Below, piece after piece: positions 1 to 34,156 of a stretch of DNA of 39,257 bases. Numbering within the stretch: the stretch's first letter is position 1; every line of letters begins with the position of its first letter. A program made the position numbers and the translations under genes. The DNA comes from Candidatus Omnitrophota bacterium (GTDB taxonomy: Bacteria > Omnitrophota > Omnitrophia > Omnitrophales > Aquincolibacteriaceae). The stretch lies in assembly GCA_043803685.1 (NCBI GenBank), contig JAZDJU010000080.1:1-39257 (forward strand), read 5' to 3'. The notes beneath the pieces are model-generated. The model had not been told where the DNA came from, ran no database searches, and saw nothing but the letters and a program-made list of their open reading frames with translations.

Positions 1-1961
1 GCTTCACCTGTAAGGAGTTGGGGATCTCTGATTACATTTCCCTCTCCGTCGACGCCGAACATTATTTTCTTTCCATCAGGTTGATTCATGTCATAGATCC
101 TGACAAGTGTCATTTCTGTGCCAGCTGGCACTATTTGGTCATAATTGAGAAGCCCGAGATCCTCAGGAAGCAAATCGAACGCCTTCGTTACCACGCCTCC
201 GGGATTTTTGGATAGAGCCTCAAAAGCTTTGGCGACCCGCTCCTGAGCTTCAATCTGTTCGGGAGATTCATTCCCTAAAGCTTTCATAACCTCAAGAGTC
301 ACTCTATAAGTAATGGCTTCCTGGATCAGGACCGGCACATTTTCCCCCAAGAGGATATGCATGATCTCATGCGCAATCTTGATCGCGAGCCACTTAGCCC
401 TCTCGCCCGACGGGATCTCCTGGTAGGCACCTTGATCGACGATCACCGTGTTCAGTCCGATAAACGCCATCGCAAAAGATTTTGGCCCGGATCTCATAGC
501 TTTGTACTTTTCAGGATCAATCCCGGAAAGGAAAACAACCTTCACCCGATACGCTTCTTCGGGAAGGATCTGCTTTTCCACAAGGAGATCGATCGCGCCC
601 TTCACCACCGCCGTCTCTTTTTCAGAGAAGCTGATGGAATCCCTGAGATCTTTTTCAGTCACTCCTTTGAGTAGCCCCTGACTTTGCACGGCCTCCCACA
701 ATTGAGGAAAGTCGAATTGCACCTGCTGCGAGCGGGCGCTTGAAGAAGCGCTGAAAACTTTCAGAGCCGCATCCTGAAACTTCGCTCGGGGACTCGCGCT
801 CGAACGATCCTTTTTCACCGTATCCGCGATCTTCCGAACCGCATCCTGCATTGCGTTGCGAGCTTCGCTCTCAGAAAGACCGTTCAACGTAGTTTCCATG
901 GCCCTAGCAAGATCCATCGCTCTTGTATCCGCAGGATCTTTGAGCCCAGCCTCATAAAAACCCAACCCAACCAGAAAAAGTTCGGCATACGTTTGCTGTA
1001 GGGACTTTGGCGCCGAGGGATCCATGGATGCGACATAACGTTCCCATAACATTCCCTTGGGCTCATAAATGCCCCGAGGCATTGTCCCGTCAGCGATGAT
1101 TTCCCTGTTTCCAGAATGATCCATTCCTCGCAGGTGAATGACCGGGCGGGACGGATCTTCAGCTGTCAGGCTCCGGATCTGTCCGGCTAGCGCCTCGTCA
1201 CGGATCTTCATCCTCTCATCGCCCCATCGAGTGAACTGCTCGAAGGCACTCATGGCCTTATCAAGACTCCCCTCGCCCAACGCCTCAAAGAACTGTCCGT
1301 AGAAGAGATGGCTGAGCCAGTAGCACAAGGAAGATTCAAAGTCAGGGGCTTCAAATACAACGCCGGGCACATTCGCCGCCGCAAGCGCTTTCAATTCGGC
1401 CCCTCGGAATGTAGCCGCAGGACCGCGCCCCTGGGTTTCGCGAATCAGCTTTTTGGGATCATTAACACCATAGGTCTGAAATCCCTTCCGGGAGGCATAG
1501 AACTTATGCGCCTCTTCGTCGATCCTGGCGCGGATCTCCGGATCCCCTCGATAAAGATCCAGCAACCGGCCCACTCTTGCAAGATCGTCTTTCTCCGGGA
1601 CCTTCCCGGAAAGAAAGGACACCCGACCGCCCTGGAGATCGCCCAAAAGCTTGTTCAGATAATCCGCCCAACCGGTTTCCAGGATGGCCAGGGCATTCGG
1701 CTTGCCGTTCGCTAAACGAGGCGCTTTCATCACGGCCTCGTTGATCAGTGATATCACTTCACGATTCAGGTTTTCAACACCATCGTGCATGACAAATCCC
1801 AGATAGAGAGGTATCGTTCCTGCGCTTGCCGCAACCGGCGCCACAACTGGCGTGGAAACCTGCTGCACCATACCCGCACGCAGATCTCCCGTGAATAGAA
1901 CCGATAACGATAAAAAGAGTGTCAACATCCCAGTCGCAACGATCCGCGAAATAGACATTCC
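1..1961 (-). other. Giant protein module: internal Sec-type signal, TraB/Tiki-like domain, HExxH zincin
   Basis: GMSISRIVATGMLTLFLSLSVLFTGDLRA; VMHD, ILETG, VFEAP, IRDEAL, LRGMDH (about 1090-1810); KIAHEIMH...IQEAIT (HEIMH at 357-371). Confidence 0.6.
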
Positions 1962-4900
1962 CCGCACCTCGGAGCGTTTTTCAGGGACTTCCGATCGAGG
2001 CGCTTGTTCGGATGGGGTTTCAGAGAGTTTATCCTTGAGTTCAGCAACCTTCGCTTTAGCATATTCAACGTACTTATCTAACAAATAATTTGTTTCGGCC
2101 GCCTCTATAAACTTTTCGAACTGGGCGAGAGCCTCCCTGATTTCTCCCGCGGAATTCAAGAGATTACCCAGCCTAAAATAGGGCATAGGGGCCCAGGGCT
2201 TCAATTGACTTGCTTTTTCATAACTCGCCCTGGATTTCGCATAACTCACGTGGGCCGTCGGATAACTCCCCAGGGTTTTGCCATATTTGCCCTTCAATAA
2301 GTAAGCATCACCAAGACCCATATAATCCGTAAAAACGGCAGGTGACATCTCATCCTCGGCATATCCAGGATTCAAACGAATCGCGGCTTCATATAGTTTA
2401 ATGGCATCATCCAAACGAGAGGGGACCGTCATTAACTTATCTCCCAGATTGATGTAAGCATCATGATTCTTGGGATTCAGAGCGATTTGCTGTCTATAGA
2501 GCATTTCCATACGCGCCAAATCTTTGGGAAACACTATCCCCGTGACCACCGCATAATTCCAAAGAAAGAGTTGTATCGCCTCCTGAAACGGTATCACTCT
2601 GATAGCCTTACGAGTGTCCAGCACGACCCCCTCAGGCGGGATCTCACCCCTCTCTAGCTTCGGCCGCCGCTCGTCACTGGAAACAATGCTCGCGTCACGA
2701 TTCTCTGAGGAGGGATCAATCCAACGATATGTTCCGTCTGATAACTCCACCACATTAAAAGCATGTCCTATAAACAACCTATCGCCGGGATAACTCGCGA
2801 CCCAATTTTGAATTCCAAGGTCTTCGAGGTACTTCCCGGCAAAAATGCTTCGGAATACGCAACTCATTTCGCCGCCAGAACGCCAGACCGGCCCAGGAGC
2901 AGCTTCCAAAGCGCCTCTCTCCGGCTTACTCGTATCCACCCACCCGGGAAGCGCTAGAATGGGATCCAGAATTTTCCTGATCGCATCAAGCTCCGCCTGC
3001 ACAACTTGGGGTGAATCGTCACCGTACTTCTGCTTGGCTTCAGCGATCGATTTTTTCAAGCCCGGCACGTTGATCTTCCATCCAAGATAATCTGCAAGGA
3101 GCTTCTGAGTGTCCTTCACGCCTTTAAAATAGGTCGCATACTCAAGCTCGACGAGAATCGTCTGGATCACCAGATCGGTCAGCTTACGCGGGAGATCCAG
3201 CGCCCTGATACTTTTTTCGGCATCCCCTTTCCGGCCAAAGATCTCTTCGAACAATTGGCGTTCCTCTCCACTCAGTCCAAGACGGCTGTAGAACTCCTCG
3301 TTCATTCCCTGCCGCAACGTTTGCTCCACTCCGTTCCCTAACGCGTCGACCGCAGATCCCGCGAGCATGGCCCCCACCCCGGAAAAGGCACTGATCAGGG
3401 ATTGCTGTTCGGGACTGATCTCTCCTCCCCGAGACTTCGCCAGTTGAGTCATGTGATCCGCCATCCCAATGAGCTGCTTCGCTACCTTGGGGAGAAGCAC
3501 ACCCTCACGAACACCGTTGGGAAGCCCTTGAATGACTTTAAGAAGATTGAGAGCCTCTTGGAGCGATAAATTTTCGGGAAGCTGGAAATGATAAACAGCA
3601 CCCTCGCCTTTGCCGGTCACGCTCGGTTTCAAATAGTTTTGGGGCGGGTTCTTCACAAATTTCAGCTCAACACCCCCGGTAAGATTAAACCACGACAAAA
3701 TATCCTTCGTATCGCTATCGAAGCTGATCCCAAACCGGGACAGCACATCTTTCAACGGTAATGTCATCACATCCTGGACAATGGCGTTCTCCAACACGCC
3801 TCCTTGCTGAACCAGCGTCGTTGCAAAACGCGTTGGAACTTCCAGCGTCGCTGCCCACGAAGCCGGCCCATCCAACACCGCAACCCCCGCAGCAGCACCT
3901 AACAATTTCAGAAATGACCTGCGAGACAAGACTGGATTTGTTTTAGCCACATCCGCCGCAGCTGAAATCACCCCATCTCCCCGCATCTCGGAGCGATTTT
4001 GCGATTCACCTTGAGTCGTTTCGATTGAGCTCTCGGGTTTCTGAAGATTGGGCCATAAACTAGGATCTTCAGCGATTTTCAATTCCTCTTGAATCTCTTT
4101 GATGGAGATCCAGGCCGCCCGAACTTCACCCGACAATCCAGGATAATCATGGGCGAGTGACAAAACCTTTTGAAACTGTGCGAGCGCACCTTCAAGATTC
4201 CCGCTATTTTTTAAAATGCCTCCAAGCACTCGAAATTGTCGCAAGCCACCAGGATCCAAGGCGATCAACTTATCAATTTCCGGGATTGCGTCCTCATACT
4301 TTTCAGTTGCAATTAAAGCATCCACAAGGCGAGACCGTGCAATTAAAAGTTTTGGATCCAATGCGATCGCTTGTCTATACGCATCAATAGCCTCTCCAAA
4401 CTTATCCACCCTAGCATATCGTCCACCCTGATCGAAATAGAACTTCGCAGATACAGGATCAGGAGGTTTCTCGCTTCGCATCTCTTCGATGATTTTTGTC
4501 CCCTTAAGAACCGCATCAAAATTGTGACGAAAACTCTCCTTGATCGTGGGCTTAAAAGGAAGAATCCGAGCCGAATCCACGCCAGAGGAATCTCTGAGAT
4601 TTATCAAACGGATCCCAATTTCCGGGATTTCTTTAATACCTAAGTGAGCGTTGAGAATGCTGTAAGCTTTAGGACGCGATGGCTCCACCCATATAAACCT
4701 TCCGTCTGACAATTGGACTAAAAGCAGTATGTGGTTTGCCTTTTCGATAGAACCCGCATAAAACTCGGGTAAGACGCTCCACAGTTTGATCCCAATTTGT
4801 TCCATCTCCTCCCCGCCAATAGCAACTCGCCCTAAACAATTCAGTCTATTGGTAAGTGCCATCCAAGAGGGAGAGGCTTCCACAACTATCGTGGCTTCTT

Positions 4901-7900
4901 CCGTATCCTTGTAGACCCAACCGGGAAGCTTAACGAGCACCTCCACAATTTTTTTGATCGCGTTAAGTTCTACTTCTGACGCCTTTTCTGCTCCCTTCTT
5001 TCTGGCATCCTCGATCGCTTTTTTCAAGGCAGGAATATCGACACCCTTCAAATGTTCTCCGTCGAAATATTCTTTATAGCGCATCAGACCCTGAAAATAC
5101 GCCACCGCTTCAAACTCACTCCGGACTTGATTCACAGCTAGGCGAAGGGCCCTATCCCAAAGCCCGAGCTCGGATATTGCCACGCTCGAAGCACTTTCAC
5201 CAAAATACTGCTTGAATTTGTACCGCTCTTGATTGTAAAGGCCCAAGGCCTTGAATACTTGTCTATCCATCTCCTCCTGCAAGGGCATGGCCCGGATCTC
5301 TTCCAGCGTTGGAAGCACATCTGTCTGGACCGTGGTCAGTAAACTTGTCCCGATCCCGTAAAATCCGTTGATCATCGCAGCTTGTTCAGCCGTAAGTGCC
5401 TGTGTCATCGCCAACTGAGCCATCAGGACCGCCGTAGATTTGAACGTCTCAGCAACCTGCGAAAGGAACACATTGGGGTTGCTACTATGAGGCAGCTTTT
5501 GCAACACCCCAATGAGTTTCAAAGCTTCGCTGACCGTTAAGTCTTCCGGCAACGCGTAATGGTAAACAGCATCACGGCCTTCTCCCTCCATGCTCGCCGG
5601 CTTGTAAAAATCTTTCGCCGGTTCGAGTTTCTCGCGTGGAACGAACTCCACCGTAAAATCCCCACCCGCTAACTTGAGCCACGCCAGATCCACCGGTTCG
5701 CCCAACTTGACGGCCTTACCATCGCCTGCGAAACTTTGCCGCTCCGCTGCTGTCCCGAAAAGAGGCGTACTCATGACCTTAGCCGACAGGGAATTCGCCT
5801 GCACTTGCGCTAAACTCTCCGGCGAGAGCGTTGCGAGCGGCTCCGTCGCGTTCACCTGCCCCCCTCCGCCAGACAATGCCAACATAACCGTGATCAACAA
5901 AACCGTTAGAGACTTTTTAAGATCCTTCCATCCCCGCATCTCCGAGCGCTTGGCCGCTTTTGCTTTTTCGGCCGCGGCGACAGTATCTGCCTTGGCAGCT
6001 GCGGCAATATCCTTTTCGTTTCGCGTATTGAGCCCCTCAAAATGATTTCCGAGGTGCGGCATGAGCTCTTCCATTTTCAGGATTGGAAGCTTAAGAATAA
6101 GGGTGTCAAAAGAACTTTCGCCAGAGAACTTCTCTGTGAAAATGCTCAGCGCATTCCAGATTTTAAAAGTAACCGGATCTGTGACAAAGACCGAGTTCCT
6201 TTCTTTGACGACCAAATACGCCACGGAAGGCTTGCCCGATTTCAACGTGGGATCCATCTTTTCCCCTTGCGGAGGGAATGGTTTCCCGGAAGCAAGCACC
6301 GTCAATTGAAACAATTCTGTCAGACCCGCATCTTCAAGTTCTCGAAATTCCTTTTCGGAGCGTAAGGATAATAACTTTTGATAAACCCTCCGTTGCATAT
6401 GGTCTGAAAAAGCGGCGCTTTTCTCCTTCCCCATCAGACCCGCCATGAGGGCATAGCCTGCACGAACTTTTGTATCACGGAATAACAGCCCGTATTTAGC
6501 AACGCCGGGTTCATTCAAAATAACCTCGCCCTTCTGCCGGTAGATCTCTACCGCAGCCTCGTAATCCCCCCCCGCTGCTTCGACCTCCCTCCGGATATCC
6601 TGAGCGTGTTCCAAAACCTTCCCCATAAAATCAATATCCTCAGGGCTCAGATCCCGCTCCTGCTCCACCAATGCAAGAGGATCGAGACCGTGAGAAGCCA
6701 ACACGGTGATCACCCCCTCAATATCAATGGGCCCGGGCGTCGAAACGGGTGAATGCAAGTCCGCGCTAAATCCCACATAATCCTCTATGGGACCAAGGTT
6801 TTCATTGAGATGGAGTTCCCGTAGATACCCGATCACCGTCTCTCGATGCTCTGGATATTTCCGAGCGAGAGCTTTCACCCTTTGAGCGATCGTGTCCGCC
6901 GAGACCACGGGATCTTCCCCGCTCAGGTTGTAGTGCGCCACATCCAGCACGATCCCGAGATTTTTGAGCGCTCCCGGATCCTGCTCCTTCACGAGCTCGA
7001 AAATATCTTCGAACGCATCCATGAACCCAGCCGATTTCGTGTAATTCTTCTTCCCCGGCGTCTTGTCATGGTAATTTTCAAGATTGATCTTGAGGTCCGG
7101 AGCTGCCTGGCTGGCGTAGAGCACCAACTCGGCATAAGCCTTTTTCGCCTCCGGGCTGAGCGTCATCAAATGAACAACGATGCCGGCCGCTCCGATCTCC
7201 CCCGCGAACCGGATCTGTTCTTTCATGAACTCCGGATTATCCGCCGCGTCCTCAAATAAAAACTGCGCGCCGACCGCCGGCCCCACAATGGAACTATGAA
7301 CTGTCAATTTGATCCCCGTCTTTTCAAGGAGATCCTTAATAGCGTCTTTATATTCAGGCGAGTATTCGCCTGGAAGTCGCCGGGCACTAACCGAACCAGG
7401 TGCAAACCCAGCAGCATACGGTAAATTGTCGAAGGACACTTCAACGTGGGTCAAGCCGCGGTTGTAAGCCTCACGAATCGCTGAAAGGATGTCTCCCTCG
7501 AGATTAAAAAACGCAGAGGCGCCCGCCTCAATGGTCTTAGTGCCTTCCTTACGATCTAGTCGCTGAGCTCCCGGCACATTTCCTGCAACATATTCTGTAA
7601 CGCGCGATTGGAATTTTCCGGCTAATTCCTCCGGCTTCGACGCGGCCTTTAAAGATTCGTAGGTCGTGGCAAGCTTGAAAAGACAGTACGGTTTCCCAAG
7701 CGTCTCGGCCCCCGCTTCTCCGAGGCGATCAAGCGCCCCAACCACCGCCTTCATGGTCCCCTCTTGCAGCTTGTAGGTTCGTGGAGTCCCGTCAGGGCCC
7801 CTGACCCGCAATCCTGCGATCATCGCCTCCGCATCGCGAACCGCCTGATCCCCCCTCACTTCCGAGCGTTTGGGATCAGCATTGAACTTAGGCTCCGCAG

Positions 7901-10900
7901 TCACTGCGTCGGGCAGGGTCACTAGCAGAATCGCATCCGGGACCTCGTTTACCTCAAAATAGACTTCCGGTCCGTCCTTTCCGGGTCTTGTTTTCTGGAC
8001 GGGAACATAAACGCGGCCTGCTAATTGCGTACGACTCAATGGACTCCATATGACCTCGGGAATCGGACGGCCGAAAGCCTTGGAGGAACTTTCGATCGCG
8101 GCTATGTCCCCTGGATTGATGCCTCCCTCGTCCTCAGGATGAGAATGATAGCTGAAGAGATAATTACCGTAACGAGCGAACACCTTTGGAAGCCGCTGCG
8201 CGAGAACGGCTGACTCCAAAAATTCGCCTTGCTGATTTATCACCAACTGAACATCTTCACGCCTGTTGCGAAGCATGAGGGTTTCACCCGTCTTCCCCAG
8301 CGTCACAGCATGAGAAGATGTTTCCAACGATTCAAGGGCTTCCTCGAACGATCCTCTCAGCCGGACCCCCGTCTTTTCAAGGATCAGCTCTTCAATGTTC
8401 CGCTCAACCGTCCGCCCGCCTTGATCCACAAGCGCCTTGACGGACGAATGGTCTCCATTCCGAAGCACCACGGGAAAGGACTCTTCGCTTTGGCCTTTGA
8501 TCGCAATAACAATATGGGAATGATCAAACAGGATCTCTGCCGTGGCACTCGCCAGGGCCGTTTCACGAGAATCCTCCAACGCAAATTCCATCTGATCGGG
8601 AATAATTGTCAATAGGACGGAAACCCCTTTCGGAAGTGTTCCATTCCGGTGGCGCGTGCCCACATCGATAACCATCGCGTCATAGGCGGCCCGAAGATCT
8701 TTCGCTCCCGGGACCAAAGACTCTAATGTTCTAATATTTTGCTCACTTTTAGGATGAGAAATTCTGTCGTTCGCATCTAAATAATCCAGAGGGTATTTTT
8801 GCGAACGGAAAGCACTCCATAAAAGCCCTGCGAGGCCGCTTATGGCTCCAACGAATAGAGACACACCCCAGAGGACCACATTCTCCCAGTTCGAAAATAG
8901 ATCCGTCCTCGCTAAAAACTCCGCAATTAAAAATGAAGCAACCGCCCCTCCCGAAATGGCGCATGCAGCCACCACTCCCCCCCAATACCGATTGATCCAT
9001 TTCTCAACAGCCTCCTGACGATCAAAAAACTTCCGCGCCGCAGGGGACACCCCTGCTAGCACCGGCAAAGAAATACTCGCATCGACAGGTTCAAATTTCT
9101 CCAGCAACTCCTTATCCCTCACCTCCGAGCGCCCATCCGCCGGCGTCGTGGCGGGGACTGCGCTGGGTTGTGTAGTAACTTCACTTGGCGTGGCAGGTGA
9201 AACCTGAGCGGCGGGTTCTCCCCTCTTTTCGGAGCGGACTTTCTTTTGCACCGGAAAACCCGACTCGTCCACAATCCCCTTCGCTACAGCAAAAGATTCG
9301 GCAAAATCTTCTTCGGGCGCCATTTCTGGCGAGTACCATCCATCCCCGGTCTCTTTCCCTGACGCTATATTCTGGCCGTGGGCGGTCACTCTTTCACGAG
9401 CCGACCATGTTTCTCTTTGTTCTTCCGATAATTTTTTCTGCCACACATGGTGACCCGCTTCGTGCAATACGATATGTTCGAATGCGCCGGGATCAAACGC
9501 AAAATCATCCACGCTTGCCAGAGCCATAGTATCGTTGTCTAAATACGGTCCACCGTCACCCAAACGCATCCCGGATACAAGTCCGGCCGCGCGTTGATCA
9601 CGCACAAACCGAATATCCTTGACTCCGAGGGACCTCAAAACGTTTTTGACGGTTTCCGAAAGACCACGGATCCTCGAATAAGGCATCAACGGATCGACCC
9701 AAAACCCGTCGATCAGTTCGTATCCGGCATTTCGATACGCCTCTGCTCGTTTTGCCCGTTGCCTGTCCGCAGTCAACTCGTGGCTTGCGTTCAACAATTC
9801 CCTAGCCAACTGCTGGTTCCGCGCTGCTTCCGAAGAAACCTTTTGCCCGTTTCGAAACCTTAACGCCTCTTCTTCACTACGAACCCATGTTTTTTTGTCT
9901 TCGGACAGCCGGTACAAATGATCTTCGAATTCGTCCTGAGTTATAATTTTAAAGGCTTCCGCGCGTCCCAAAGAATCTCCGGCCTCGAACCTTCTCCGAA
10001 TGTCAGCCTCCTTTTCACTGGCAATATCCAGTGCGGTCCGCGCCTCCGAGCGCTTGAGCGCCGGCGTTGCGGCGGGGTCCATCCCTGTTCCCGGAGTACT
10101 AGGGACCGACCTTGCCTGTTGGGCCTGACTTATCATCTCGCTCAAAGCTTTCTCGTATAGCACACGGTAAGCAAGAAAGGACATGGCCTGGGCAGCCCCG
10201 AGCCCTATCTCAGGTTTAGCGATGCGCTTTCCCTCGGCCTGGATTTCCTTCAGTTCCTCATCGCTAAGAGTAATTTCACGCTTGGCTTGATCAGGAACCT
10301 TTTGCGGATTCTCGACACCTTCCCAGGGAAAATACGGGTAGCGCCTTACACGTTTTAGGTTGGGATCGACTACGTAGGGATCTAATACATCGAACGTATT
10401 CGTTGATGATTTCTCATTCGTACCGAAAAGTCGAAATCCGTCAGTGTCGGTTAAAAGATGGATGACAGGCTTCACACCTTTCGACAGATCAAAGCTACTG
10501 TAGTTGGATGTAGAAATAACAGTCCCCTGCAACCTCTTAAGAAATTCTTCCACCGGCATTGCCAGATCTGAATCGAGGCCGGAAGCTTTTTTTCCTCGAA
10601 AAACAAAGTAGAAGTAACTTTTGACAGGCCAAGGCGGTTGGCCATGAAAGCCCATCACGGGAAGCTCATTGACTCCGATCCGCCGGACCTCATTTTCAAG
10701 CTCCGCAATGTCGCTCTCCAGCGTCGCCAAACGCGACTCGGATCGCTTACCCACCGTCCTAGCTGGAGTTTCAGTGCTCGGGACGCCAAGCGTTGTGGTA
10801 ATTCGCCCGCCCGCGGACGAATTGGGTGCGGCAGATGTTGGAAGATTATTGGTTTGGGATACTGGGCCTGTGATGGGCGTTTTGGCCGCAAGCTTGTTCA

Positions 10901-13172
10901 TGTCAGCCAGCATCGCCGCAGCAACGGCTGAGGGTTCTTGGCCCAGATTCGTGGCAACTTGATTCACGATCGGAGCGATCTGATCCCTAGCGGCATCAGC
11001 GCCGATAGGTTTTATCTCTCCCTTGTCAGTCTTCTGCTTGATGAGTTCTCCCTGCACAGCCAACCCTTGCGCCAATATGGGACTTACCTGCCCGGCCGGT
11101 GCCGGACTACCCGCCAAGTCTGTTAAAACATCTGTGATCTGATCGGTCGTAGCACCCACTTTCCCAATAGCCTCGAGCGCTTCGGCTTCCTGGAGACGGA
11201 TGACGCGATAAATCTTCCGGCTGTTCTTTTCCCCGATCGGTGTCAGAGCGATCTGGATCCCCGCATTTTTGGCATAATCAGACTGGTTAAAGATCCCGAT
11301 AGCCCCATCCACCGTCCCATAATCACCGGCACGTCCGATCGCCCGCAGGACCGGCATCAGATTTCTAAGAACGTCTTGTCCTCCCAACTGTTCGCCTTGC
11401 GCCCTAAATGATTCGAGACGCGACACGGCTTCCAGGTAAGAAAGCTCGAAGGTGCTAGCTTTGTTCTGGAGCATCACACTACGATAAAGATTCTCGTCGG
11501 ATTTTTCGCTGAGGCGCGGGGTGAGAACACCGTAGCTGATCTCATGTTCCCTGAGAAGCTCCGTAATGCCGTCGGTGTGGAAACCTCCCGTGATCACGAC
11601 CGCTTTACTGAGAGATTCCCGGCGCATGACGGTGTCGATCTTTTCGTAAAAGACGTCCTCTCTTTTCCTCGCCGCTTCGTAGAACCGGTACGCCGCTTCC
11701 TGCACCTCAGTCACGGCCTTCTTGAAATTGGGATTGACCGGCTTTGTCTCGAAATTGGAAAGCGGCAGGTTAAGCTGCTGACTCACTAAGATTCCGATCT
11801 TCTTGAGCTCCCCGACCATGGCCTCCATCGAAAGGACTTCTTCCCGGCCAAGCACCTCCTGCCAATCCTTGCGGGTCAATTCGAGATTCAGAAGCTTTCG
11901 AACCAGCTCTTCGTCCCTGTAGAGCGCGAGAAGAGCTTTCTGCTGCTCTGTCGCGGCCAGTTTGTCGAGGATCCGCGTGAACAGGCTCCGGATCTCCGTA
12001 AAAAGACTCTTCGGATCCAGCTCGCTTTTCAGGATGAGATAGCCCGCATAAAGACTGAAGTGAGGATAATCGGAAAATCGAAATCCCTTCGGCCCCGCCT
12101 CCATAACGAGCTGTTCCATGAGATCTCGCGGCTCGATCGGACCCGCCTGGCCCGCCACACCCGTGCGCATCACGCTCAGCCGCTGATCCTTGAAATTCTC
12201 GATCGCGGTCACGAGCTTCGGGGAAACTTTTTTCTCCTTCAGGAACTTGATCAGGGTATCCCGTTCCGAAAGCCCCTTGGCCGTATCGAGTTCTTTTTCC
12301 ATGGCCTGGAGGACCAAAAGCCTCGTGGTCTGCGGCCATTCGACCTGCGCGAGCAAACTTTCAAGATCGATTCCTAGCACTCGTTTCGCTTCCGCGGTGA
12401 GATTGCGAATATAGGGCATGAACTCCCGGTGACCTTTTTCGAATTTCTTCCATTCCCCGAGTAGTTTGATCAGATCGCCCGGGAACACTTTGGAGGCAAG
12501 ACCGGAGAGCCGCCCTTCGAAACCGTCGAGGTACTTTTTTACCGTTGCCTCCGAACCAAACACTTTCTTGAGCGCTTCGTAGTTCTCGCGATAGAGCTCC
12601 GCGTTCTCGATGCCGTGAGCCCTGACGGCGGAGCCGTCAGACTGAAGACTGGAGACTGGAGACTGGAGACTAAAATCCTTCTTGCTGCTGTCTGTGGTCT
12701 GCGGTCTATAGTCTTTATCTGCTTCTAGAAGATAAAGTTCCGCTCCCGTGAGCTCTCCCTGTTCTGCGAGGAATTGCGCGAGCTTCAGGTTCCGCTCCTT
12801 GTCCGGGAACATCTTGAGATAATCAGGATTGAGGTCCTCAGAAGCGCCTTCCACGAAGAGCGTCTTGATGCCATAGGATTTGTCGAGATACTGCAAAAGC
12901 TGTTTGATCTTCTGCTGAGCTCCGTAGTTGGCGTGCGCGTTCTGGATATGCAGGATGAATTTCGGATCGGCGTGCGGCGGCGCCTCGTATAAGCCATCCA
13001 GCGTCGCCAGTTCGTCGGGGATATCGATCTGGAGAAAACCGGGGGTTTCGCGGACCGCCATCATCGCGATCCCGGCTCCGGGATCCGCGAAGGTGACCTG
13101 GCTGGACAGAAAGCAGGCCAACGTCAAGAGACTCGTCGCGCGAATGAGTTTTTGTTTTACTTTCGAAAACAC
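1..13172 (-). CDS. Giant secreted multidomain protein (>=4390 aa, 3' end outside the window)
   Basis: GTG at 13172 with SD AAAGGGGGA at 13181-13189. N-terminus MFSKVKQKLIRATSLLTLACFLSSQVTFA is a Sec signal. Hand translation found no in-frame stop down to position 1, and the ORF track lists no closed minus ORF in this frame. Catalytic motifs occur throughout. Confidence 0.95.
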   Translation of the reverse strand, partial: MFSKVKQKLIRATSLLTLACFLSSQVTFADPGAGIAMMAVRETPGFLQIDIPDELATLDGLYEAPPHADPKFILHIQNAHANYGAQQKIKQLLQYLDKSYGIKTLFVEGASEDLNPDYLKMFPDKERNLKLAQFLAEQGELTGAELYLLEADKDYRPQTTDSSKKDFSLQSPVSSLQSDGSAVRAHGIENAELYRENYEALKKVFGSEATVKKYLDGFEGRLSGLASKVFPGDLIKLLGEWKKFEKGHREFMPYIRNLTAEAKRVLGIDLESLLAQVEWPQTTRLLVLQAMEKELDTAKGLSERDTLIKFLKEKKVSPKLVTAIENFKDQRLSVMRTGVAGQAGPIEPRDLMEQLVMEAGPKGFRFSDYPHFSLYAGYLILKSELDPKSLFTEIRSLFTRILDKLAATEQQKALLALYRDEELVRKLLNLELTRKDWQEVLGREEVLSMEAMVGELKKIGILVSQQLNLPLSNFETKPVNPNFKKAVTEVQEAAYRFYEAARKREDVFYEKIDTVMRRESLSKAVVITGGFHTDGITELLREHEISYGVLTPRLSEKSDENLYRSVMLQNKASTFELSYLEAVSRLESFRAQGEQLGGQDVLRNLMPVLRAIGRAGDYGTVDGAIGIFNQSDYAKNAGIQIALTPIGEKNSRKIYRVIRLQEAEALEAIGKVGATTDQITDVLTDLAGSPAPAGQVSPILAQGLAVQGELIKQKTDKGEIKPIGADAARDQIAPIVNQVATNLGQEPSAVAAAMLADMNKLAAKTPITGPVSQTNNLPTSAAPNSSAGGRITTTLGVPSTETPARTVGKRSESRLATLESDIAELENEVRRIGVNELPVMGFHGQPPWPVKSYFYFVFRGKKASGLDSDLAMPVEEFLKRLQGTVISTSNYSSFDLSKGVKPVIHLLTDTDGFRLFGTNEKSSTNTFDVLDPYVVDPNLKRVRRYPYFPWEGVENPQKVPDQAKREITLSDEELKEIQAEGKRIAKPEIGLGAAQAMSFLAYRVLYEKALSEMISQAQQARSVPSTPGTGMDPAATPALKRSEARTALDIASEKEADIRRRFEAGDSLGRAEAFKIITQDEFEDHLYRLSEDKKTWVRSEEEALRFRNGQKVSSEAARNQQLARELLNASHELTADRQRAKRAEAYRNAGYELIDGFWVDPLMPYSRIRGLSETVKNVLRSLGVKDIRFVRDQRAAGLVSGMRLGDGGPYLDNDTMALASVDDFAFDPGAFEHIVLHEAGHHVWQKKLSEEQRETWSARERVTAHGQNIASGKETGDGWYSPEMAPEEDFAESFAVAKGIVDESGFPVQKKVRSEKRGEPAAQVSPATPSEVTTQPSAVPATTPADGRSEVRDKELLEKFEPVDASISLPVLAGVSPAARKFFDRQEAVEKWINRYWGGVVAACAISGGAVASFLIAEFLARTDLFSNWENVVLWGVSLFVGAISGLAGLLWSAFRSQKYPLDYLDANDRISHPKSEQNIRTLESLVPGAKDLRAAYDAMVIDVGTRHRNGTLPKGVSVLLTIIPDQMEFALEDSRETALASATAEILFDHSHIVIAIKGQSEESFPVVLRNGDHSSVKALVDQGGRTVERNIEELILEKTGVRLRGSFEEALESLETSSHAVTLGKTGETLMLRNRREDVQLVINQQGEFLESAVLAQRLPKVFARYGNYLFSYHSHPEDEGGINPGDIAAIESSSKAFGRPIPEVIWSPLSRTQLAGRVYVPVQKTRPGKDGPEVYFEVNEVPDAILLVTLPDAVTAEPKFNADPKRSEVRGDQAVRDAEAMIAGLRVRGPDGTPRTYKLQEGTMKAVVGALDRLGEAGAETLGKPYCLFKLATTYESLKAASKPEELAGKFQSRVTEYVAGNVPGAQRLDRKEGTKTIEAGASAFFNLEGDILSAIREAYNRGLTHVEVSFDNLPYAAGFAPGSVSARRLPGEYSPEYKDAIKDLLEKTGIKLTVHSSIVGPAVGAQFLFEDAADNPEFMKEQIRFAGEIGAAGIVVHLMTLSPEAKKAYAELVLYASQAAPDLKINLENYHDKTPGKKNYTKSAGFMDAFEDIFELVKEQDPGALKNLGIVLDVAHYNLSGEDPVVSADTIAQRVKALARKYPEHRETVIGYLRELHLNENLGPIEDYVGFSADLHSPVSTPGPIDIEGVITVLASHGLDPLALVEQERDLSPEDIDFMGKVLEHAQDIRREVEAAGGDYEAAVEIYRQKGEVILNEPGVAKYGLLFRDTKVRAGYALMAGLMGKEKSAAFSDHMQRRVYQKLLSLRSEKEFRELEDAGLTELFQLTVLASGKPFPPQGEKMDPTLKSGKPSVAYLVVKERNSVFVTDPVTFKIWNALSIFTEKFSGESSFDTLILKLPILKMEELMPHLGNHFEGLNTRNEKDIAAAAKADTVAAAEKAKAAKRSEMRGWKDLKKSLTVLLITVMLALSGGGGQVNATEPLATLSPESLAQVQANSLSAKVMSTPLFGTAAERQSFAGDGKAVKLGEPVDLAWLKLAGGDFTVEFVPREKLEPAKDFYKPASMEGEGRDAVYHYALPEDLTVSEALKLIGVLQKLPHSSNPNVFLSQVAETFKSTAVLMAQLAMTQALTAEQAAMINGFYGIGTSLLTTVQTDVLPTLEEIRAMPLQEEMDRQVFKALGLYNQERYKFKQYFGESASSVAISELGLWDRALRLAVNQVRSEFEAVAYFQGLMRYKEYFDGEHLKGVDIPALKKAIEDARKKGAEKASEVELNAIKKIVEVLVKLPGWVYKDTEEATIVVEASPSWMALTNRLNCLGRVAIGGEEMEQIGIKLWSVLPEFYAGSIEKANHILLLVQLSDGRFIWVEPSRPKAYSILNAHLGIKEIPEIGIRLINLRDSSGVDSARILPFKPTIKESFRHNFDAVLKGTKIIEEMRSEKPPDPVSAKFYFDQGGRYARVDKFGEAIDAYRQAIALDPKLLIARSRLVDALIATEKYEDAIPEIDKLIALDPGGLRQFRVLGGILKNSGNLEGALAQFQKVLSLAHDYPGLSGEVRAAWISIKEIQEELKIAEDPSLWPNLQKPESSIETTQGESQNRSEMRGDGVISAAADVAKTNPVLSRRSFLKLLGAAAGVAVLDGPASWAATLEVPTRFATTLVQQGGVLENAIVQDVMTLPLKDVLSRFGISFDSDTKDILSWFNLTGGVELKFVKNPPQNYLKPSVTGKGEGAVYHFQLPENLSLQEALNLLKVIQGLPNGVREGVLLPKVAKQLIGMADHMTQLAKSRGGEISPEQQSLISAFSGVGAMLAGSAVDALGNGVEQTLRQGMNEEFYSRLGLSGEERQLFEEIFGRKGDAEKSIRALDLPRKLTDLVIQTILVELEYATYFKGVKDTQKLLADYLGWKINVPGLKKSIAEAKQKYGDDSPQVVQAELDAIRKILDPILALPGWVDTSKPERGALEAAPGPVWRSGGEMSCVFRSIFAGKYLEDLGIQNWVASYPGDRLFIGHAFNVVELSDGTYRWIDPSSENRDASIVSSDERRPKLERGEIPPEGVVLDTRKAIRVIPFQEAIQLFLWNYAVVTGIVFPKDLARMEMLYRQQIALNPKNHDAYINLGDKLMTVPSRLDDAIKLYEAAIRLNPGYAEDEMSPAVFTDYMGLGDAYLLKGKYGKTLGSYPTAHVSYAKSRASYEKASQLKPWAPMPYFRLGNLLNSAGEIREALAQFEKFIEAAETNYLLDKYVEYAKAKVAELKDKLSETPSEQAPRSEVPEKRSEVRGMSISRIVATGMLTLFLSLSVLFTGDLRAGMVQQVSTPVVAPVAASAGTIPLYLGFVMHDGVENLNREVISLINEAVMKAPRLANGKPNALAILETGWADYLNKLLGDLQGGRVSFLSGKVPEKDDLARVGRLLDLYRGDPEIRARIDEEAHKFYASRKGFQTYGVNDPKKLIRETQGRGPAATFRGAELKALAAANVPGVVFEAPDFESSLCYWLSHLFYGQFFEALGEGSLDKAMSAFEQFTRWGDERMKIRDEALAGQIRSLTAEDPSRPVIHLRGMDHSGNREIIADGTMPRGIYEPKGMLWERYVASMDPSAPKSLQQTYAELFLVGLGFYEAGLKDPADTRAMDLARAMETTLNGLSESEARNAMQDAVRKIADTVKKDRSSASPRAKFQDAALKVFSASSSARSQQVQFDFPQLWEAVQSQGLLKGVTEKDLRDSISFSEKETAVVKGAIDLLVEKQILPEEAYRVKVVFLSGIDPEKYKAMRSGPKSFAMAFIGLNTVIVDQGAYQEIPSGERAKWLAIKIAHEIMHILLGENVPVLIQEAITYRVTLEVMKALGNESPEQIEAQERVAKAFEALSKNPGGVVTKAFDLLPEDLGLLNYDQIVPAGTEMTLVRIYDMNQPDGKKIMFGVDGEGNVIRDPQLLTGE
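1977..3980 (-). other. Giant protein module: internal Tat-type signal, transglutaminase-like Cys-His-Asp domain, TPRs
   Basis: SRRSFLK (3906-3926) followed by LLGAAAGVAVLDGPASWA; MSCVFR (Cys 2859-2861); GHAFNVVELSDGTYRWIDPS (His 2763-2765, Asp 2715-2717); TPRs at about 2100-2500. Confidence 0.8.
3996..5933 (-). other. Giant protein module: internal Sec-type signal, transglutaminase-like Cys-His-Glu domain, TPRs
   Basis: GWKDLKKSLTVLLITVMLALSGGGGQVNA; NCLGR (Cys 4836-4838); NHILLLVQLSDGRFIWVEPS (His 4731-4733, Glu 4683-4685); TPRs such as AIDAYRQAIALDP at about 4150-4440. Confidence 0.75.
6660..7530 (-). other. Giant protein module: AP endonuclease 2 / xylose isomerase-like TIM barrel (endonuclease IV-like)
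   Basis: LTVH, IVVH, INLEN, LDVAH, ELHLNEN, ADLH, GPID and LVE appear in the order of the endonuclease IV metal ligands. Confidence 0.85.
7869..9116 (-). other. Giant protein module: two TM helices plus JAB/MPN domain
   Basis: Hydrophobic hairpin at 8808-8987. FSYHSHPEDEGGINPGD (HSH...D at 8106-8147) is HxHx7(N)x2D, with an upstream candidate Glu in RREDVQLVI. Confidence 0.65.
9237..10037 (-). other. Giant protein module: zincin metallopeptidase
   Basis: IVLHEAGHHVW (HEAGH at 9450-9464) with downstream EDFAESF (9291-9311), the third-ligand pattern of anthrax lethal factor-like zincins. Confidence 0.8.
11460..12960 (-). other. Giant protein: N-terminal TraB/Tiki (EreA/ChaN-like fold) domain
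   Basis: Ordered motifs HIQNAH (12933-12950), LFVEG (VEG at 12846-12854), GIEN (12603-12614), FY..A..RE, and AVVITGGFHTDGITELLREHEISY (GGFH at 11577-11588). This matches the H...E...E...R...GxxH pattern of the TraB/Tiki family; no HMM was run. Confidence 0.55.
12639..12714. repeat. Heptamer tandem/inverted repeat inside the giant CDS
   Basis: Five AGACTGG-like units, a spacer, then four inverted GTCTnnn units; the reading frame is kept. Confidence 0.85.
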
Positions 13173-13244: not shown

Positions 13245-13273
13245 AATGTAGCTTGGAGATTAGACATTGTCAA
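13245..13273 (-). promoter_or_regulatory. Sigma70-type promoter of the giant gene
   Basis: Minus strand TTGACA (13273-13268), 17 nt, TACATT (13250-13245), in an AT-rich intergenic region about 70 nt upstream of the start. Confidence 0.6.
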
Positions 13274-13404
13274 TGCAGTAACTAATTTTACTAAATATAA
13301 CTTAACTCATTGCATTTGAATGATTTACGTCATTAATTTATACCGGATAAGCTAGACGCCATGAAACTATGCTCTCATTCTCATTTTTGACTCGTCCAAC
13401 CCCC

Positions 13405-13462
13405 TTTACACACCCGGGGTGTTAAAAGATACGTAACCCTCTTTACACCCCGGGTGTGTAAA
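13405..13462. repeat. REP-like inverted pair
   Basis: Perfect 18-bp inverted repeat TTTACACACCCGGGGTGT (13405-13422) / ACACCCCGGGTGTGTAAA (13445-13462); each arm is itself nearly palindromic. Confidence 0.75.
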
Positions 13463-13528
13463 TGGGTTGAAGGGTGAAAACGGAGCGGCTCTTGAAGTTG
13501 AAATTGTAATTTCGGATACTGCTCGTTG

Positions 13529-13537
13529 TGATATAAT
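13529..13537 (+). promoter_or_regulatory. Extended -10 promoter of lpxA (probably leaderless)
   Basis: TGaTATAAT ends 8 nt before the ATG at 13546; no SD is present. Confidence 0.6.
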
Positions 13538-13545
13538 TCCGATCT

Positions 13546-14400
13546 ATGTCTGAAATCCATTCCAGTGCCATCATCGGAAAGCAGGTCGAGATCGGGGTCA
13601 ATAACATCATTGGCCCGAACGTCATTCTTGAGGACGGTGTCAAGATCGGCTCCCACAACAAGATCATGGCCGGTGCTTATCTCGCTCGAGGGACCGAGAT
13701 CGGAAATTACAACGTCCTTCACATGAATGCCGTGATCGGTCATGAGCCCCAGGACCTCGCTTATCAGGGCGAGGCCACCTTCACCAGGATCGGCTCCAAG
13801 AACGTCATCCGGGAATTCGTCACGATCCACCGCGGCACCAAGGAAGGCACCGCGACCGTGATCGGCGACGGAAATTTCCTCATGGCTTATTGCCACATCG
13901 CGCACAATTGCCATCTCGGCAGCAACATCATCATGGTGAACCAGGCTTCGCTCACCGGCCACTGCGTGGTCGAGGACAAGGCGTTCCTTTCGGGCATGAC
14001 CGGTTTTCACCAATTCACGAGGATCGGCACACTCGCCATGGTGAGCGCTCTCACCGCGATCAATAAGGACATTCCCCCCTATGTGGTGTGCGGCGGACGT
14101 CCGGGTGTCGCTCAAGGGATCAATGTGGTGGGCATGAGACGCGCGGGGATCGGACCGCAGGTGCGCGCCGAGATCAAGGAAGCTTACAAATTGCTTTATC
14201 GTTCAGGATTGAATGTGAGCCAGGCCGTGGAAAAGATCCGGAATTCCCTCAAAAGCCCCGAAGTGATCCACATGGTCGAGTTCATCGAGGCCTCCAAACG
14301 CGGAATTTTGGATGGCTCCAGCGCGGCGGCTGACACGATCGGACACCGCAAAAACCGCGCGATTACTGCTGCAGAAGAACCTGAAGAAGAACTCGCCTAG
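13546..14400 (+). CDS. lpxA: Acyl-ACP--UDP-N-acetylglucosamine O-acyltransferase
   Basis: Hexapeptide repeats; IGHEPQDL, IREFVTIHRGT, HIAHNC, HQFTRIG and GINVVGMRR motifs. Confidence 0.93.
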   Translation: MSEIHSSAIIGKQVEIGVNNIIGPNVILEDGVKIGSHNKIMAGAYLARGTEIGNYNVLHMNAVIGHEPQDLAYQGEATFTRIGSKNVIREFVTIHRGTKEGTATVIGDGNFLMAYCHIAHNCHLGSNIIMVNQASLTGHCVVEDKAFLSGMTGFHQFTRIGTLAMVSALTAINKDIPPYVVCGGRPGVAQGINVVGMRRAGIGPQVRAEIKEAYKLLYRSGLNVSQAVEKIRNSLKSPEVIHMVEFIEASKRGILDGSSAAADTIGHRKNRAITAAEEPEEELA

Positions 14401-33649: not shown

Positions 33650-34003
33650 TTACACGGGCATCTTCGAAACACTTGCCTGAGCTCGTGATGCGGCGGCACT
33701 CGGGACTGCCACTCCGACGCCTTTCAAAAGGTTTCCGTGAATATCCTTTTTGCCTTGCTCATAGAGGATACAATCCATACCCTCTTTCTCCAAACGCGAT
33801 TGGATCGAACGAGCTTCGTCCATAGAAGCCGTCTCATAAACCTGTTTCCAGATCTCCCGCGAACCTTCTTGAGGGCTGGGCTCTTTGATTTGTGACTCGT
33901 TGGGCAAAGCCCTGTTGGCTCCAGAAGAAAATGGCCTTCCCCTCCTGGATATAAAATAGAGGATCATTCCGACAATCAAAAGATAAGCGATAAATGTAAC
34001 CAC
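33650..34003 (-). CDS. Small membrane-anchored hypothetical protein (DUF2007-like C-terminus)
   Basis: GTG start behind AAAAAGGAG, an N-terminal TM, and WKQVYETASMDEARSIQSRLEKEGM. Confidence 0.7.
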   Translation of the reverse strand: MVTFIAYLLIVGMILYFISRRGRPFSSGANRALPNESQIKEPSPQEGSREIWKQVYETASMDEARSIQSRLEKEGMDCILYEQGKKDIHGNLLKGVGVAVPSAAASRAQASVSKMPV

Positions 34004-34068: not shown

Positions 34069-34106
34069 AAAAAAAACCGCTATCTGACGTTATCGTCAGA
34101 TGGCGG
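34069..34106 (-). terminator. Intrinsic terminator / attenuator
   Basis: Minus strand CCGCCATCTGACG-ATAA-CGTCAGATAGCGG (13-bp stem, one mismatch) followed by T8. Confidence 0.9.
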
Positions 34107-34156
34107 CCCGACCATCAAAATGACTCCTCTTGGAAAATCTCCAAGACCCCTGTCCC
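34101..34156 (-). ncRNA. Candidate nhaA-I-like (Li+/Na+) riboswitch aptamer
   Basis: Minus strand GGGACAGGGG-TCTTGGA/TCCAAGA hairpin-...-GGTCGGGCCGCC. The 3' end overlaps the left arm of the terminator, and cation transport genes lie downstream. The family call rests on my recall of the consensus. Confidence 0.5.

Follow-up and report, generated by a model that had tools for sequence, protein, structure and literature searches.

A giant Omnitrophota gene with a conserved head and exchangeable cassettes joined at a recurring pentapeptide: a candidate cellular polyprotein

The stretch of DNA analyzed here (the window) is the whole 39,257-nucleotide contig JAZDJU010000080.1 of assembly GCA_043803685.1, from a Candidatus Omnitrophota bacterium. 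Its minus strand carries, up to one contig end, a giant gene whose product consists of a conserved N-terminal head followed by a series of modules (cassettes) separated by a five-residue junction motif, RSExR. Comparison of relatives shows that cassettes come, go and change places with the motif as the breakpoint, and the same peptide may also be the site at which the chain is cut into separate proteins.

The giant gene and its junction motifs

The open reading frame (ORF) at positions 3..13172 (minus strand) has a GTG start and 4,390 codons with no internal stop in either the ORF listing or the translation, so that the single unbroken minus-strand frame of at least 4,390 codons described in the original prediction stands; the database copy of the protein has 4,391 amino acids (aa). 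The frame has no stop codon because the gene is truncated at the contig end, and additional cassettes and the C-terminal tail found in complete relatives are expected to lie off the contig. The window gene therefore comprises the head and the first eight units of the array, and its Pfam domains all lie in frame along its length. From the N terminus, the protein is laid out as follows.

13083..13172, minus: signal-peptide-like N-terminal segment (aa 1-30), rich in Lys and Arg, then a hydrophobic stretch, then ..TFA-DPG; read from the sequence
11418..13055, minus: conserved core of the head (aa 40-585), from alignments A2 and A3 and homologs
10746..11417, minus: variable head extension and linker to the first junction (aa 586-809), from the alignment
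10731..10745, minus: junction motif 1, RSESR (aa 810-814), motif scan
10053..10730, minus: cassette M2 (aa 815-1040), no known family
10038..10052, minus: junction motif 2, RSEAR (aa 1041-1045), motif scan
9237..10037, minus: cassette M3 (aa 1046-1312), HExxH at aa 1237-1241 (9450-9464), no family match
9222..9236, minus: junction motif 3, RSEKR (aa 1313-1317), ahead of a 30-aa spacer rich in P, T, S and A
9117..9131, minus: junction motif 4, RSEVR (aa 1348-1352), motif scan
7869..9116, minus: cassette M4 (aa 1353-1768), no library match
7854..7868, minus: junction motif 5, RSEVR (aa 1769-1773), motif scan
5949..7853, minus: cassette M5 (aa 1774-2408), with a xylose-isomerase-like TIM barrel, AP_endonuc_2, at aa 1933-2182 (6627-7376)
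5934..5948, minus: junction motif 6, RSEMR (aa 2409-2413), motif scan
3996..5933, minus: cassette M6 (aa 2414-3059), signal-like hydrophobic stretch, Cys...His...acid region and TPR
3981..3995, minus: junction motif 7, RSEMR (aa 3060-3064), motif scan
1977..3980, minus: cassette M7 (aa 3065-3732), paralog of M6 with 33% identity over the N-terminal parts
1962..1976, minus: junction motif 8, RSEVR (aa 3733-3737), motif scan
3..1961, minus: cassette M8 (aa 3738-4390), in two parts and cut by the window end

The eight exact RSExR motifs compare with 0.075 expected from the composition of the protein, and their variants follow one another in precisely the order first reported. At the DNA level, the pattern CGCTCSGARNNGMGG has seven matches in the 39-kb window, every one an in-frame, minus-strand site of the giant gene (100 shuffles predict 0.01), and the eighth motif is encoded as CGA...CGT. 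An unbiased repeat finder returned the junction motif as the largest direct-repeat family of the window, while R[SA][ED]xR was absent from the 18 other long window ORFs (∼8,100 codons). The 30 residues before each motif are linker-like, with 67 to 90% P/S/T/A/G/E/K/Q/N/D compared to 61% protein-wide. Junctions 4 (9117-9156, minus) and 2 (10038-10077, minus) are 78% identical over 40 nucleotides (nt), an identity that extends into the linker upstream of the motif (repeat family D2) and indicates that junction regions of the window are related as DNA.

A family of head, cassettes, and tail

A search with aa 1 to 809 among proteins of 2,414 to 7,683 aa found 67 giants that share the head, the window's own included. 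Their heads are 40 to 66% identical, their downstream Pfam content is completely different, and those with a name are almost all from Candidatus Omnitrophota. Head homologs number 7,057 at an E value of ≤1e-3 and 786 at ≤1e-30 in 1.84 billion representatives, and 11 of the 12 genome loci compared are Omnitrophota or Omnitrophica metagenome-assembled genomes. At least two RSExR motifs are present in 53 of the 66 other giants, against 0.03 to 0.3 expected; four more use RAExR, and the nine without an enriched RxxxR word are the weakest head matches. The proposal, made from the window alone, of a conserved head with exchangeable modules joined at one recurring site is thus borne out: the head is widely shared, the downstream content differs, and the same motif delimits it. 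Motifs and their controls were defined by regular expressions, and the junctions are not all independent, as some cassettes are homologous between loci.

Complete family members also share a tail. A hidden Markov model of the last ∼300 columns of alignment A1 matches 66 of 211 family proteins, 64 of them at the exact C-terminal end. The C-terminal dipeptide is AA or SA in 155 of the 211, and 64 of 65 tails have Ala as their final residue, with Ser (36) or Ala (28) before it. This ending suggests recognition of the free C terminus, for example by a PDZ-type or tail-specific protease. Almost no polar residue of the tail is invariant (R900 in the numbering of P0097).

“Empty” scaffolds of head and tail, ∼1,000 to 1,060 aa long, occur on contigs of up to 218 kb, and 19 of 28 proteins of 900 to 1,150 aa contain no motif. 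Over 65 complete proteins, motif number increases linearly with length (Spearman coefficient of 0.87; 3.8 motifs per 1,000 aa). The median spacing between motifs is 250 aa (n = 587), and the first motif lies a median of 164 aa after GGFH of the head. The linear increase and the motif-free head-and-tail proteins together indicate an architecture of head-(cassette)n-tail with one motif per junction, and the window gene belongs to this Omnitrophota-specific scaffold family, complete members of which carry a tail of ∼290 aa ending in [S/A]-A.

The motif lies between folded domains. Placement inside the folded domains of homologs, which the original prediction had named as evidence against itself, is rare, with one instance inside Pfam envelopes (30 envelopes) compared to 13.5 expected, and receiver, HD, HATPase, and carrier-protein domains end 6 to 17 aa before the next motif. 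The description of the modules as a set of hydrolases captures the flavor of this window but not the family, as cassettes of relatives include kinases, methyltransferases, response-regulator receivers, CMP kinase, HD, NUDIX, Fic, macro, ADP-ribosyltransferase, trypsin-like, and sugar enzymes.

Ordinary neighbor ORFs of the family loci contain no motifs: a scan of 18,533 aa gave only nine matches, all in fragments of a second family gene at locus L012. The two family genes of that locus stand in tandem (1249-9844 and from 9992 onward). The upstream one, which contains SLOG/LOG-like cassettes, is interrupted in the assembly by Ns and shifts of frame, and its tail (...SSAA) lies ∼150 nt before the next head. 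Repetition is also seen within single genes. In P0017 (2,964 aa), a near-identical cassette of ∼75 aa (...WGDVE..., bounded by KRSEAR) is repeated at least six times, which indicates tandem amplification of a cassette together with its junction. In locus L004, positions 14598-15143 and 15192-15731 form a 549-nt direct duplication with 89% identity inside a giant gene (P0011-like).

The conserved head

The head looks like an enzyme, to judge from its many invariant polar residues: H80, E108, E189, R284, R349, E353, E384, R504, H532, and Y563 are invariant and H75 is nearly so (alignments A2 and A3), and HIQNAHxN, FVEGA, and TGGFHTDG are conserved local motifs. The window protein retains the invariant residues and is 40 to 72% identical in this region to many proteins (E values down to 1e-290). 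The head has no match in Pfam, NCBIfam, or PDB, and its homolog P0093 matched only unnamed Omnitrophota clusters in the ESM Atlas.

The TraB/Tiki label first suggested for the head from its sequence is not supported by sequence comparison: there is no Pfam match in the window protein or 23 relatives, and hhalign of A2 against Escherichia coli YbaP gave a probability of 0.1. A comparison of the head with cassette M8 by the same method gave 0.07, with a top alignment that pairs the G-x-x-H strings of the two and is not significant. H80, E108, and GGFH532 of the head resemble, at the level of motifs only, the paired GxxH and Glu metal site of TraB/Tiki/ChaN proteins.

Cassettes of the window gene

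Homologs of M2, M5, M6/M7, and the C-terminal half of M8 occur in P0007, P0034, P0012, P0020, and P0009 at other ordinal positions. They begin 7 to 58 aa after a motif, except for one match in P0009 that begins 344 aa after. The M2 homolog in P0007, for example, is at ordinal position 10, begins 7 aa after a motif, and extends into the next motif, and the M5 homolog in P0034 likewise begins 7 aa after a motif. M3 and M4 have no homolog among 209 other family proteins compared.

Scans of the head, the tail, and cassettes M2, M3, M4, and M8 against Pfam, NCBIfam, PADLOC, and PHROGs returned nothing significant, and PDB sequence and profile searches with the whole protein, alignments A1 and A4, and cassettes M3, M4, M5, and M8 returned TPR matches or noise only. 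The functional labels in the original prediction accordingly divide into two groups: the TIM barrel (M5), TPR (M6 and M7), and Tat signal (M7) are recognized by Pfam or NCBIfam, while TraB/Tiki, zincin, JAB, and transglutaminase have short motifs but no significant Pfam, NCBIfam, PADLOC, PHROGs, or PDB match.

The barrel of M5 is the best supported assignment, with an E value of 1.8e-12 to PF01261 (48.0 bits against a cutoff of 31.1; profile positions 21 to 245 of 249). Identification as endonuclease IV is unsupported, the NCBIfam deoxyribonuclease IV model giving an E value of 0.0038 and 16.9 bits against a cutoff of 244. M4 has two hydrophobic helices (aa 1399-1455; 8808-8978) and an HSH-x7-N-xx-D string, i.e., HxH-x10-D (aa 1676-1689; 8106-8147), and the cassette has no match in Pfam, NCBIfam, or PDB. 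The string has the spacing of HxH-x7-S-xx-D, which together with a Glu makes up the JAMM/JAB consensus, and JAB is a tentative label for M4.

M6 has a signal-like hydrophobic stretch (aa 2421-2440; 5853-5912) 12 aa after the motif at 2409, a conserved Cys...His...acid region (∼aa 2779-2831; 4680-4838), and TPR (aa 2909-3008; 4149-4448). Its paralog M7 has a twin-arginine signal (aa 3082-3100; 3873-3929), with RRSFLK 24 aa after the motif at 3060, and TPR (aa 3560-3693; 2094-2495). The signal scores 19.5 bits with TIGR01409 (cutoff, 16.7) and 19.3 with Pfam TAT_signal, under its cutoff of 22.7. In M6, M7, and two homologs, the Cys and His are invariant (four of four) and an acidic residue follows 16 to 18 aa after the His, in a region with no Pfam or PDB match. 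The pattern presumably fits a transglutaminase- or papain-like core, an assignment without library or PDB support. No stand-alone homologs of M7 were found in the range of 367 to 1,169 aa by a weak search in which TPR words probably swamped candidates.

M8 has a signal-like stretch (aa 3743-3761; 1890-1946) 10 aa after the motif at 3733. Its N-terminal half has a subthreshold match to the ChaN/Tiki superfamily (PF04187; E value of 0.12, 12.8 bits against a cutoff of 27.7), and its C-terminal half has HExxH (aa 4268-4272; 357-371). In P0007 and P0020 the counterpart of the C-terminal half stands alone as a cassette that is bounded by motifs and begins with a signal, and M8 looks like two units joined without a motif. 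The HExxH cassettes M3 and M8 are mutually dissimilar, and neither has a library or PDB match. A decayed motif within M8 was considered and dropped, as the stretch aligns by eye inside the homologous cassette of P0007.

The motif as a peptide and as DNA

In the 211 family proteins (580,694 aa), RSExR occurs 808 times and RAExR 269 times, position 2 being Ser or Ala. Position 3 is Glu in 808 instances and Asp in 23. Replacements of the Arg residues at positions 1 and 5 occur at chance level, with a slight excess of Lys at position 1 and nothing above chance at position 5. The x residue is V (203), A (153), L (118), M (116), S (66), T (66), or I (40); it is charged in eight instances and never P, W, Y, or C. 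Apart from A or S at −1, the flanks contain almost no information. Among 64 instances with DNA, the last Arg uses all six codons at frequencies near background and the third base of Glu is free (31 GAA versus 30 GAG). Constrained residues with free codons at these two positions indicate selection on the amino acids, as for a protease site or other short linear motif. Self-cleavage through the motif Ser, or its phosphorylation, is unlikely given the 269 instances in which Ala replaces it.

The remaining codons are biased. The first Arg is CGC in 42 of the 64 instances compared to a background of 17 to 22%, even before T or TC (P = 8.5e-18). The motif Ser is TCN in 53 of 54, while AGY provides 38% of Ser before Glu elsewhere, and at x, Val is GTG in 14 of 18 (compared to 22%) and Leu is CTG in four of four. 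Most loci show this bias, which does not extend beyond the 15 nt (consensus, CGC TCS GAR NTG MGG). Amino acid selection does not need these biases, which therefore point to a role of the motif DNA at the nucleic acid level.

Cassette turnover and breakpoints at the motif

The 917 intermotif segments of the 113 proteins with at least three motifs fall into 730 clusters, of which 635 are singletons and the largest are tails. Cassette sharing, calculated for proteins of >1,500 aa with at least three cassettes and with last segments excluded, is 0.76 at head identities of ≥95%, 0.26 at 85 to 95%, and 0.08 at 70 to 85%, where 50 of 70 pairs share none. Turnover of the array is far faster than divergence of the head.

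Several lines of evidence place the breakpoints of this turnover at the motif. First, in P0013, P0014, and P0015, the heads of which are 99% identical, blocks of homology begin and stop at the motif; P0013 and P0014, for instance, keep 97% identity for 3,317 aa, as far as the final Arg of an RSEVR, and are unrelated past that point. Second, in the 11 closest pairs (blocks of ≥60% identity and ≥80 aa, boundaries <15 aa from protein ends dropped), 27 of 85 internal block boundaries are within 3 aa of a motif center (2.2% for random positions) and 40 are within 6 aa (4.7%), and the median distance from boundary to motif is 8 aa compared to 89 aa for random positions. Third, at 16 one-sided junctions the unshared flank has 0 to 3 identities in 12 right up to the motif. 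Fourth, the syntenic loci L001 and L002 share a cassette with 83% DNA identity, and this identity ends inside the motif, where both read CGC TCC GAA and then differ. L001 also reuses a longer junction twice.

Gain, loss, and exchange of cassettes thus have their breakpoints at the motif. As no sequence other than the 15 nt is shared by all junctions, we infer that these nucleotides serve in exchange as short homology or as a specific site. No integrase gene was found among the neighbors in the window or the loci compared. The breakpoints inside the motif and the codon-level bias, like the C-terminal tail and the cassette-free head-and-tail proteins, are additions to the original prediction.

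Targeting signals and a proposed mechanism

Twin-arginine and cleavable Sec signals act at N termini, and such signals cluster shortly after the junction motif. In the 113 proteins with at least three motifs, strongly hydrophobic 15-mers start 10 to 39 aa after a motif in 90 of 392 cases, compared to 9.2% of positions (P = 5e-16). Tat-like RRxF strings with an upstream motif lie 5 to 34 aa after it in 11 of 20 cases, compared to 9.3% (P = 3.5e-7), and in the window gene, cassettes M6, M7, and M8 all have targeting signals shortly after their opening motifs. This position of the Sec and Tat signals is indirect evidence, consistent with a release of cassettes at or close to the motif prior to export.

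On balance, we regard the product of these genes as somewhat more likely than not to be a polyprotein cut at R-[S/A]-[E/D]-x-R, with the coding site doubling as the crossover point of the cassettes. We propose the following. (i) The array would be translated from the single start of the scaffold as a polyprotein. (ii) An endopeptidase would recognize the junction pentapeptide, cut at some position within it, and free the cassettes as separate proteins. (iii) Some of the freed cassettes would then rely on Sec or Tat signals or membrane anchors of their own, and the products might act in the producing cell or in a prey or host cell. (iv) The 15-nt motif DNA may also be the shared short homology or specific site for gain, loss, and exchange of cassettes, and exchange there would explain why array turnover outpaces head divergence.

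A number of observations weigh against this proposal. Only 72 of the 917 cassettes begin with a strongly hydrophobic segment, and the signals after motifs could be relics of captured genes. No conserved protease gene was found beside the giant gene in the window and eight loci, the neighborhoods of which differ. The head, the only constant enzyme-like part of the family proteins, has no detectable relation to any peptidase family (Pfam, NCBIfam, PDB, and hhalign). It also follows a signal-peptide-like segment, a pattern of the window protein seen in relatives too, and is therefore perhaps exported; many cassettes in relatives are of cytoplasmic type, and a periplasmic head could not free these before export. 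Ser versus Ala at motif position 2 does not track the head tree (23 changes versus 25.1 in shuffles), so that there is no sign of coevolution between head and motif. Most cassette-free scaffolds are motif free, which implies a role of the head and tail apart from cutting. Among the 85 block boundaries, 40 are >10 aa from a motif, and the nucleic acid-level role indicated by codon bias and breakpoints could be the primary one. All sequences are metagenome assemblies, which are the sole source for the cassette differences between near-identical genes. Finally, a preprint (bioRxiv 10.64898/2026.06.07.730766) in its main text reads such giants as intact membrane-anchored polypeptides.

Alternative explanations

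The giant protein might remain uncut as a membrane-anchored multienzyme scaffold, in which the motif is a DNA-level recombination site or capture scar that leaves a tolerated linker peptide. We consider this unlikely, though several observations favor it. Breakpoints fall inside the motif, the bias toward CGC, TCN, and GTG is one of codons, and junctions within a single gene share longer DNA identity (family D2 in the window and the reused junction of L001); an intact chain is also how the 2026 preprint, as far as its main text describes them, sees the giants, i.e., as single polypeptides with a signal peptide and transmembrane segments (bioRxiv 10.64898/2026.06.07.730766). A site acting only as DNA, however, would not retain the last Arg through all six codons or exchange Ser with Ala and Glu with Asp conservatively, nor would it bar Pro (CCN) from x when all other NYN amino acids occur there, and in an intact chain there would be little point in Tat and Sec signals directly behind the motif.

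A distinctly poorer prospect is that the motif is a docking or modification site for a chaperone, secretion ATPase, kinase, or cross-linking enzyme, with the cassettes handled in turn on an uncut chain. Such a role would suit a sharp five-residue motif with variable flanks in disordered linkers, as well as the failure to find a protease near the giant genes of the window and eight loci. Phosphorylation or an acyl shift at Ser is hard to reconcile with its free replacement by Ala (269 versus 808), the constant parts of the proteins match no known binding module, and the targeting signals after the motif would be unexplained.

We doubt even more strongly that the gene is a stopless operon in which ribosomes restart at the x codon, so that cassettes beginning with Met-Arg are made separately and a protease is not needed. 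The x codon is a table 11 start codon (ATG, GTG, CTG, ATT, or ATC) in 39 of 64 DNA instances, and the preference for GTG (14 of 18 Val codons) and CTG (four of four Leu codons) is what internal initiation would favor. Against it, 25 of the 64 are not start codons, 285 of the 808 instances across the family have A, S, or T at x, and no Shine-Dalgarno-like or other conserved sequence precedes the motif. RNA folding at the motif shows no clear change (−27.9 versus −26.1 kcal/mol, with higher G+C content), the R-S-E upstream of x is conserved as amino acids, and incoming ribosomes would still read through. Internal starts or Shine-Dalgarno sequences were rejected as the general mechanism.

That the long frame is an artefact, either a chimeric assembly or several genes spanned by a frame that is open by chance, has next to no probability: the contig does come from a metagenome assembly and its end cuts the gene, but the Pfam domains are in frame and the architecture recurs in hundreds of independent assemblies, on contigs of 0.2 to 1.8 Mb, and at 12 genome loci.

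Genomic context

Two features precede the start codon of the giant gene.

13245..13273, minus: promoter-like site TTGACA-17-TACATT, ∼75 nt 5′ of the start codon; consensus match only
8 nt before the GTG of the giant ORF, minus: AAGGGGGA; consensus match only

The 18 neighboring ORFs of the window are housekeeping, transport, or GH94 genes, and the side downstream of the giant gene lies beyond the window. The 1.3-kb gap between the giant gene and fabF contains only two overlapping ORFs without a family match (13381-14115, minus, and 13546-14400, plus) and is probably noncoding or occupied by an unknown small gene. An nhaA-I RNA at 34098-34149 (minus; Rfam RF03057, 44.7 bits against a gathering score of 37) precedes by ∼95 nt an ORF (33650-34003) for a protein of 117 aa that has a hydrophobic helix at its N terminus. 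This ORF is followed on the same strand by two SPFH/Band-7 genes, a CNNM/CorC gene, and a P-type cation ATPase gene. This group looks like a sodium-responsive ion homeostasis operon. A 5′-truncated GH94-family gene (1,668 aa; 34249-39255, minus) encodes supersandwich and catalytic domains of the cyclic-glucan-synthase or phosphorylase type, and a GH94 gene is also found upstream of the family gene in locus L002.

Significance

Whether bacterial giant proteins act whole or are cut is an open question in the literature. The text of one article describes the motifs that proteases might recognize in them as unknown (PMC11573180), and West-Roberts et al. (2023; bioRxiv 10.1101/2023.11.21.568195) say the same of their cleavage points in the main text. 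The junction motif provides a concrete, phylum-wide candidate cut site for proteomics or expression tests and a rule for splitting giant ORFs into units for annotation and structure prediction, together with evidence that the units are exchanged at the same site as the candidate cut. If cleavage occurs, the family would represent a polyprotein system of cells that relies on one uniform site, at a scale known until now chiefly from viruses, and a new way of organizing and mobilizing genes. Even if the chain is uncut, the head-cassette-tail architecture, the junction motif, and the very fast turnover of cassettes are new descriptive facts.

Comparison with known systems

MARTX toxins, which are processed at Leu-containing linker sites, appear by analogy to be the system nearest in logic to the head-cassette-tail family. 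The window protein differs in lacking the glycine-rich RTX-type repeats that MARTX toxins have at both ends (Pfam and NCBIfam) and their inositol phosphate-activated cysteine protease domain, Peptidase C80 (Pfam, E value of ≤10 per module), and there are no type I secretion genes among the 18 neighboring ORFs of the window, the downstream side of the gene lying beyond it. The head and tail of the family are unrelated, unnamed domains, and its junctions are uniform pentapeptides with codon-level conservation; up to ∼24 cassettes are drawn from a far larger pool, and the hosts are environmental Omnitrophota. What the two have in common, as MARTX toxins are described in three articles, is a very long polypeptide with conserved ends, modular exchangeable enzyme domains freed by processing, and variants that arise by gene exchange (PMC5218395, PMC6731672, and PMC5555677).

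Giant “multienzyme” proteins of Omnitrophota have been described previously (class 1 of bioRxiv 10.64898/2026.06.07.730766; bioRxiv 10.1101/2023.11.21.568195). According to the main texts, they share with the present family the phylum, many hydrophobic helices, and unrelated Pfam families, which include methyltransferase, HATPase, response regulator, HD, and sugar enzymes, and possible cleavage is discussed. Those papers cover proteins of ≥10,000 aa, and the comparison here is with their descriptions only. We found no mention of the junction motif, the shared head and tail, or a polyprotein in the main texts of the 2026 preprint, West-Roberts et al. (2023), or Seymour (2023). The statement in the original prediction that no description of the architecture was known agrees with our literature searches, in which Omnitroph combined with polyprotein returned one unrelated paper.

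Viral polyproteins (picornavirus and flavivirus) are likewise single translation products of gene-sized units with a short recurring protease site in flexible linkers. The flavivirus NS3 type of site has Arg at P1 followed by a small residue, and the proposed junction cut would resemble it. In contrast to viral genes, the giant gene is cellular and lies among housekeeping genes, its module set is highly variable, and no conserved protease gene was found beside it; tblastn with the head gave no match in 50,697 phage or 72,556 plasmid records. Against PHROGs the window protein matched in the TPR region only, PADLOC returned nothing, and the gene context is chromosomal and housekeeping.

Polyvalent proteins of phages and conjugative elements also combine many unrelated enzyme domains in a chain, and processing by zincin-like peptidase domains is predicted for them in the text of Iyer et al. 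(2017; PMC5512222). One family member, P0009, carries an ART-PolyVal domain. Polyvalent proteins, however, comprise 2 to 15 domains, belong to mobile elements, and are not known to share a uniform junction motif or a constant head and tail.

Integrons resemble the family in having a fixed platform with one expression signal, unrelated cassettes without promoters, a short recurring exchange site, a huge cassette pool, and fast turnover. They differ in that the cassettes of the family are fused in frame and translated together, the exchange site is a 15-nt coding sequence rather than an attC hairpin, and no integrase is present in the window or the loci compared. We tentatively raise the possibility, short of a prediction, of an “in-frame integron,” a platform gene that would capture and shuffle whole genes as stopless cassettes by recombination at a 15-nt site also encoding the protease signal that frees their products. 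If so, up to dozens of unrelated genes would depend on a single promoter, ribosome-binding site, and start codon, and the accessory or “missing” proteome of small cells, or an effector arsenal against prey, could be hidden in giant ORFs. Giant multienzyme proteins of Omnitrophota were known already; the head-cassette-tail family would best be placed with modular, processed giant proteins as a variety of its own, with a real chance that it is something more distant, an in-frame cassette system.

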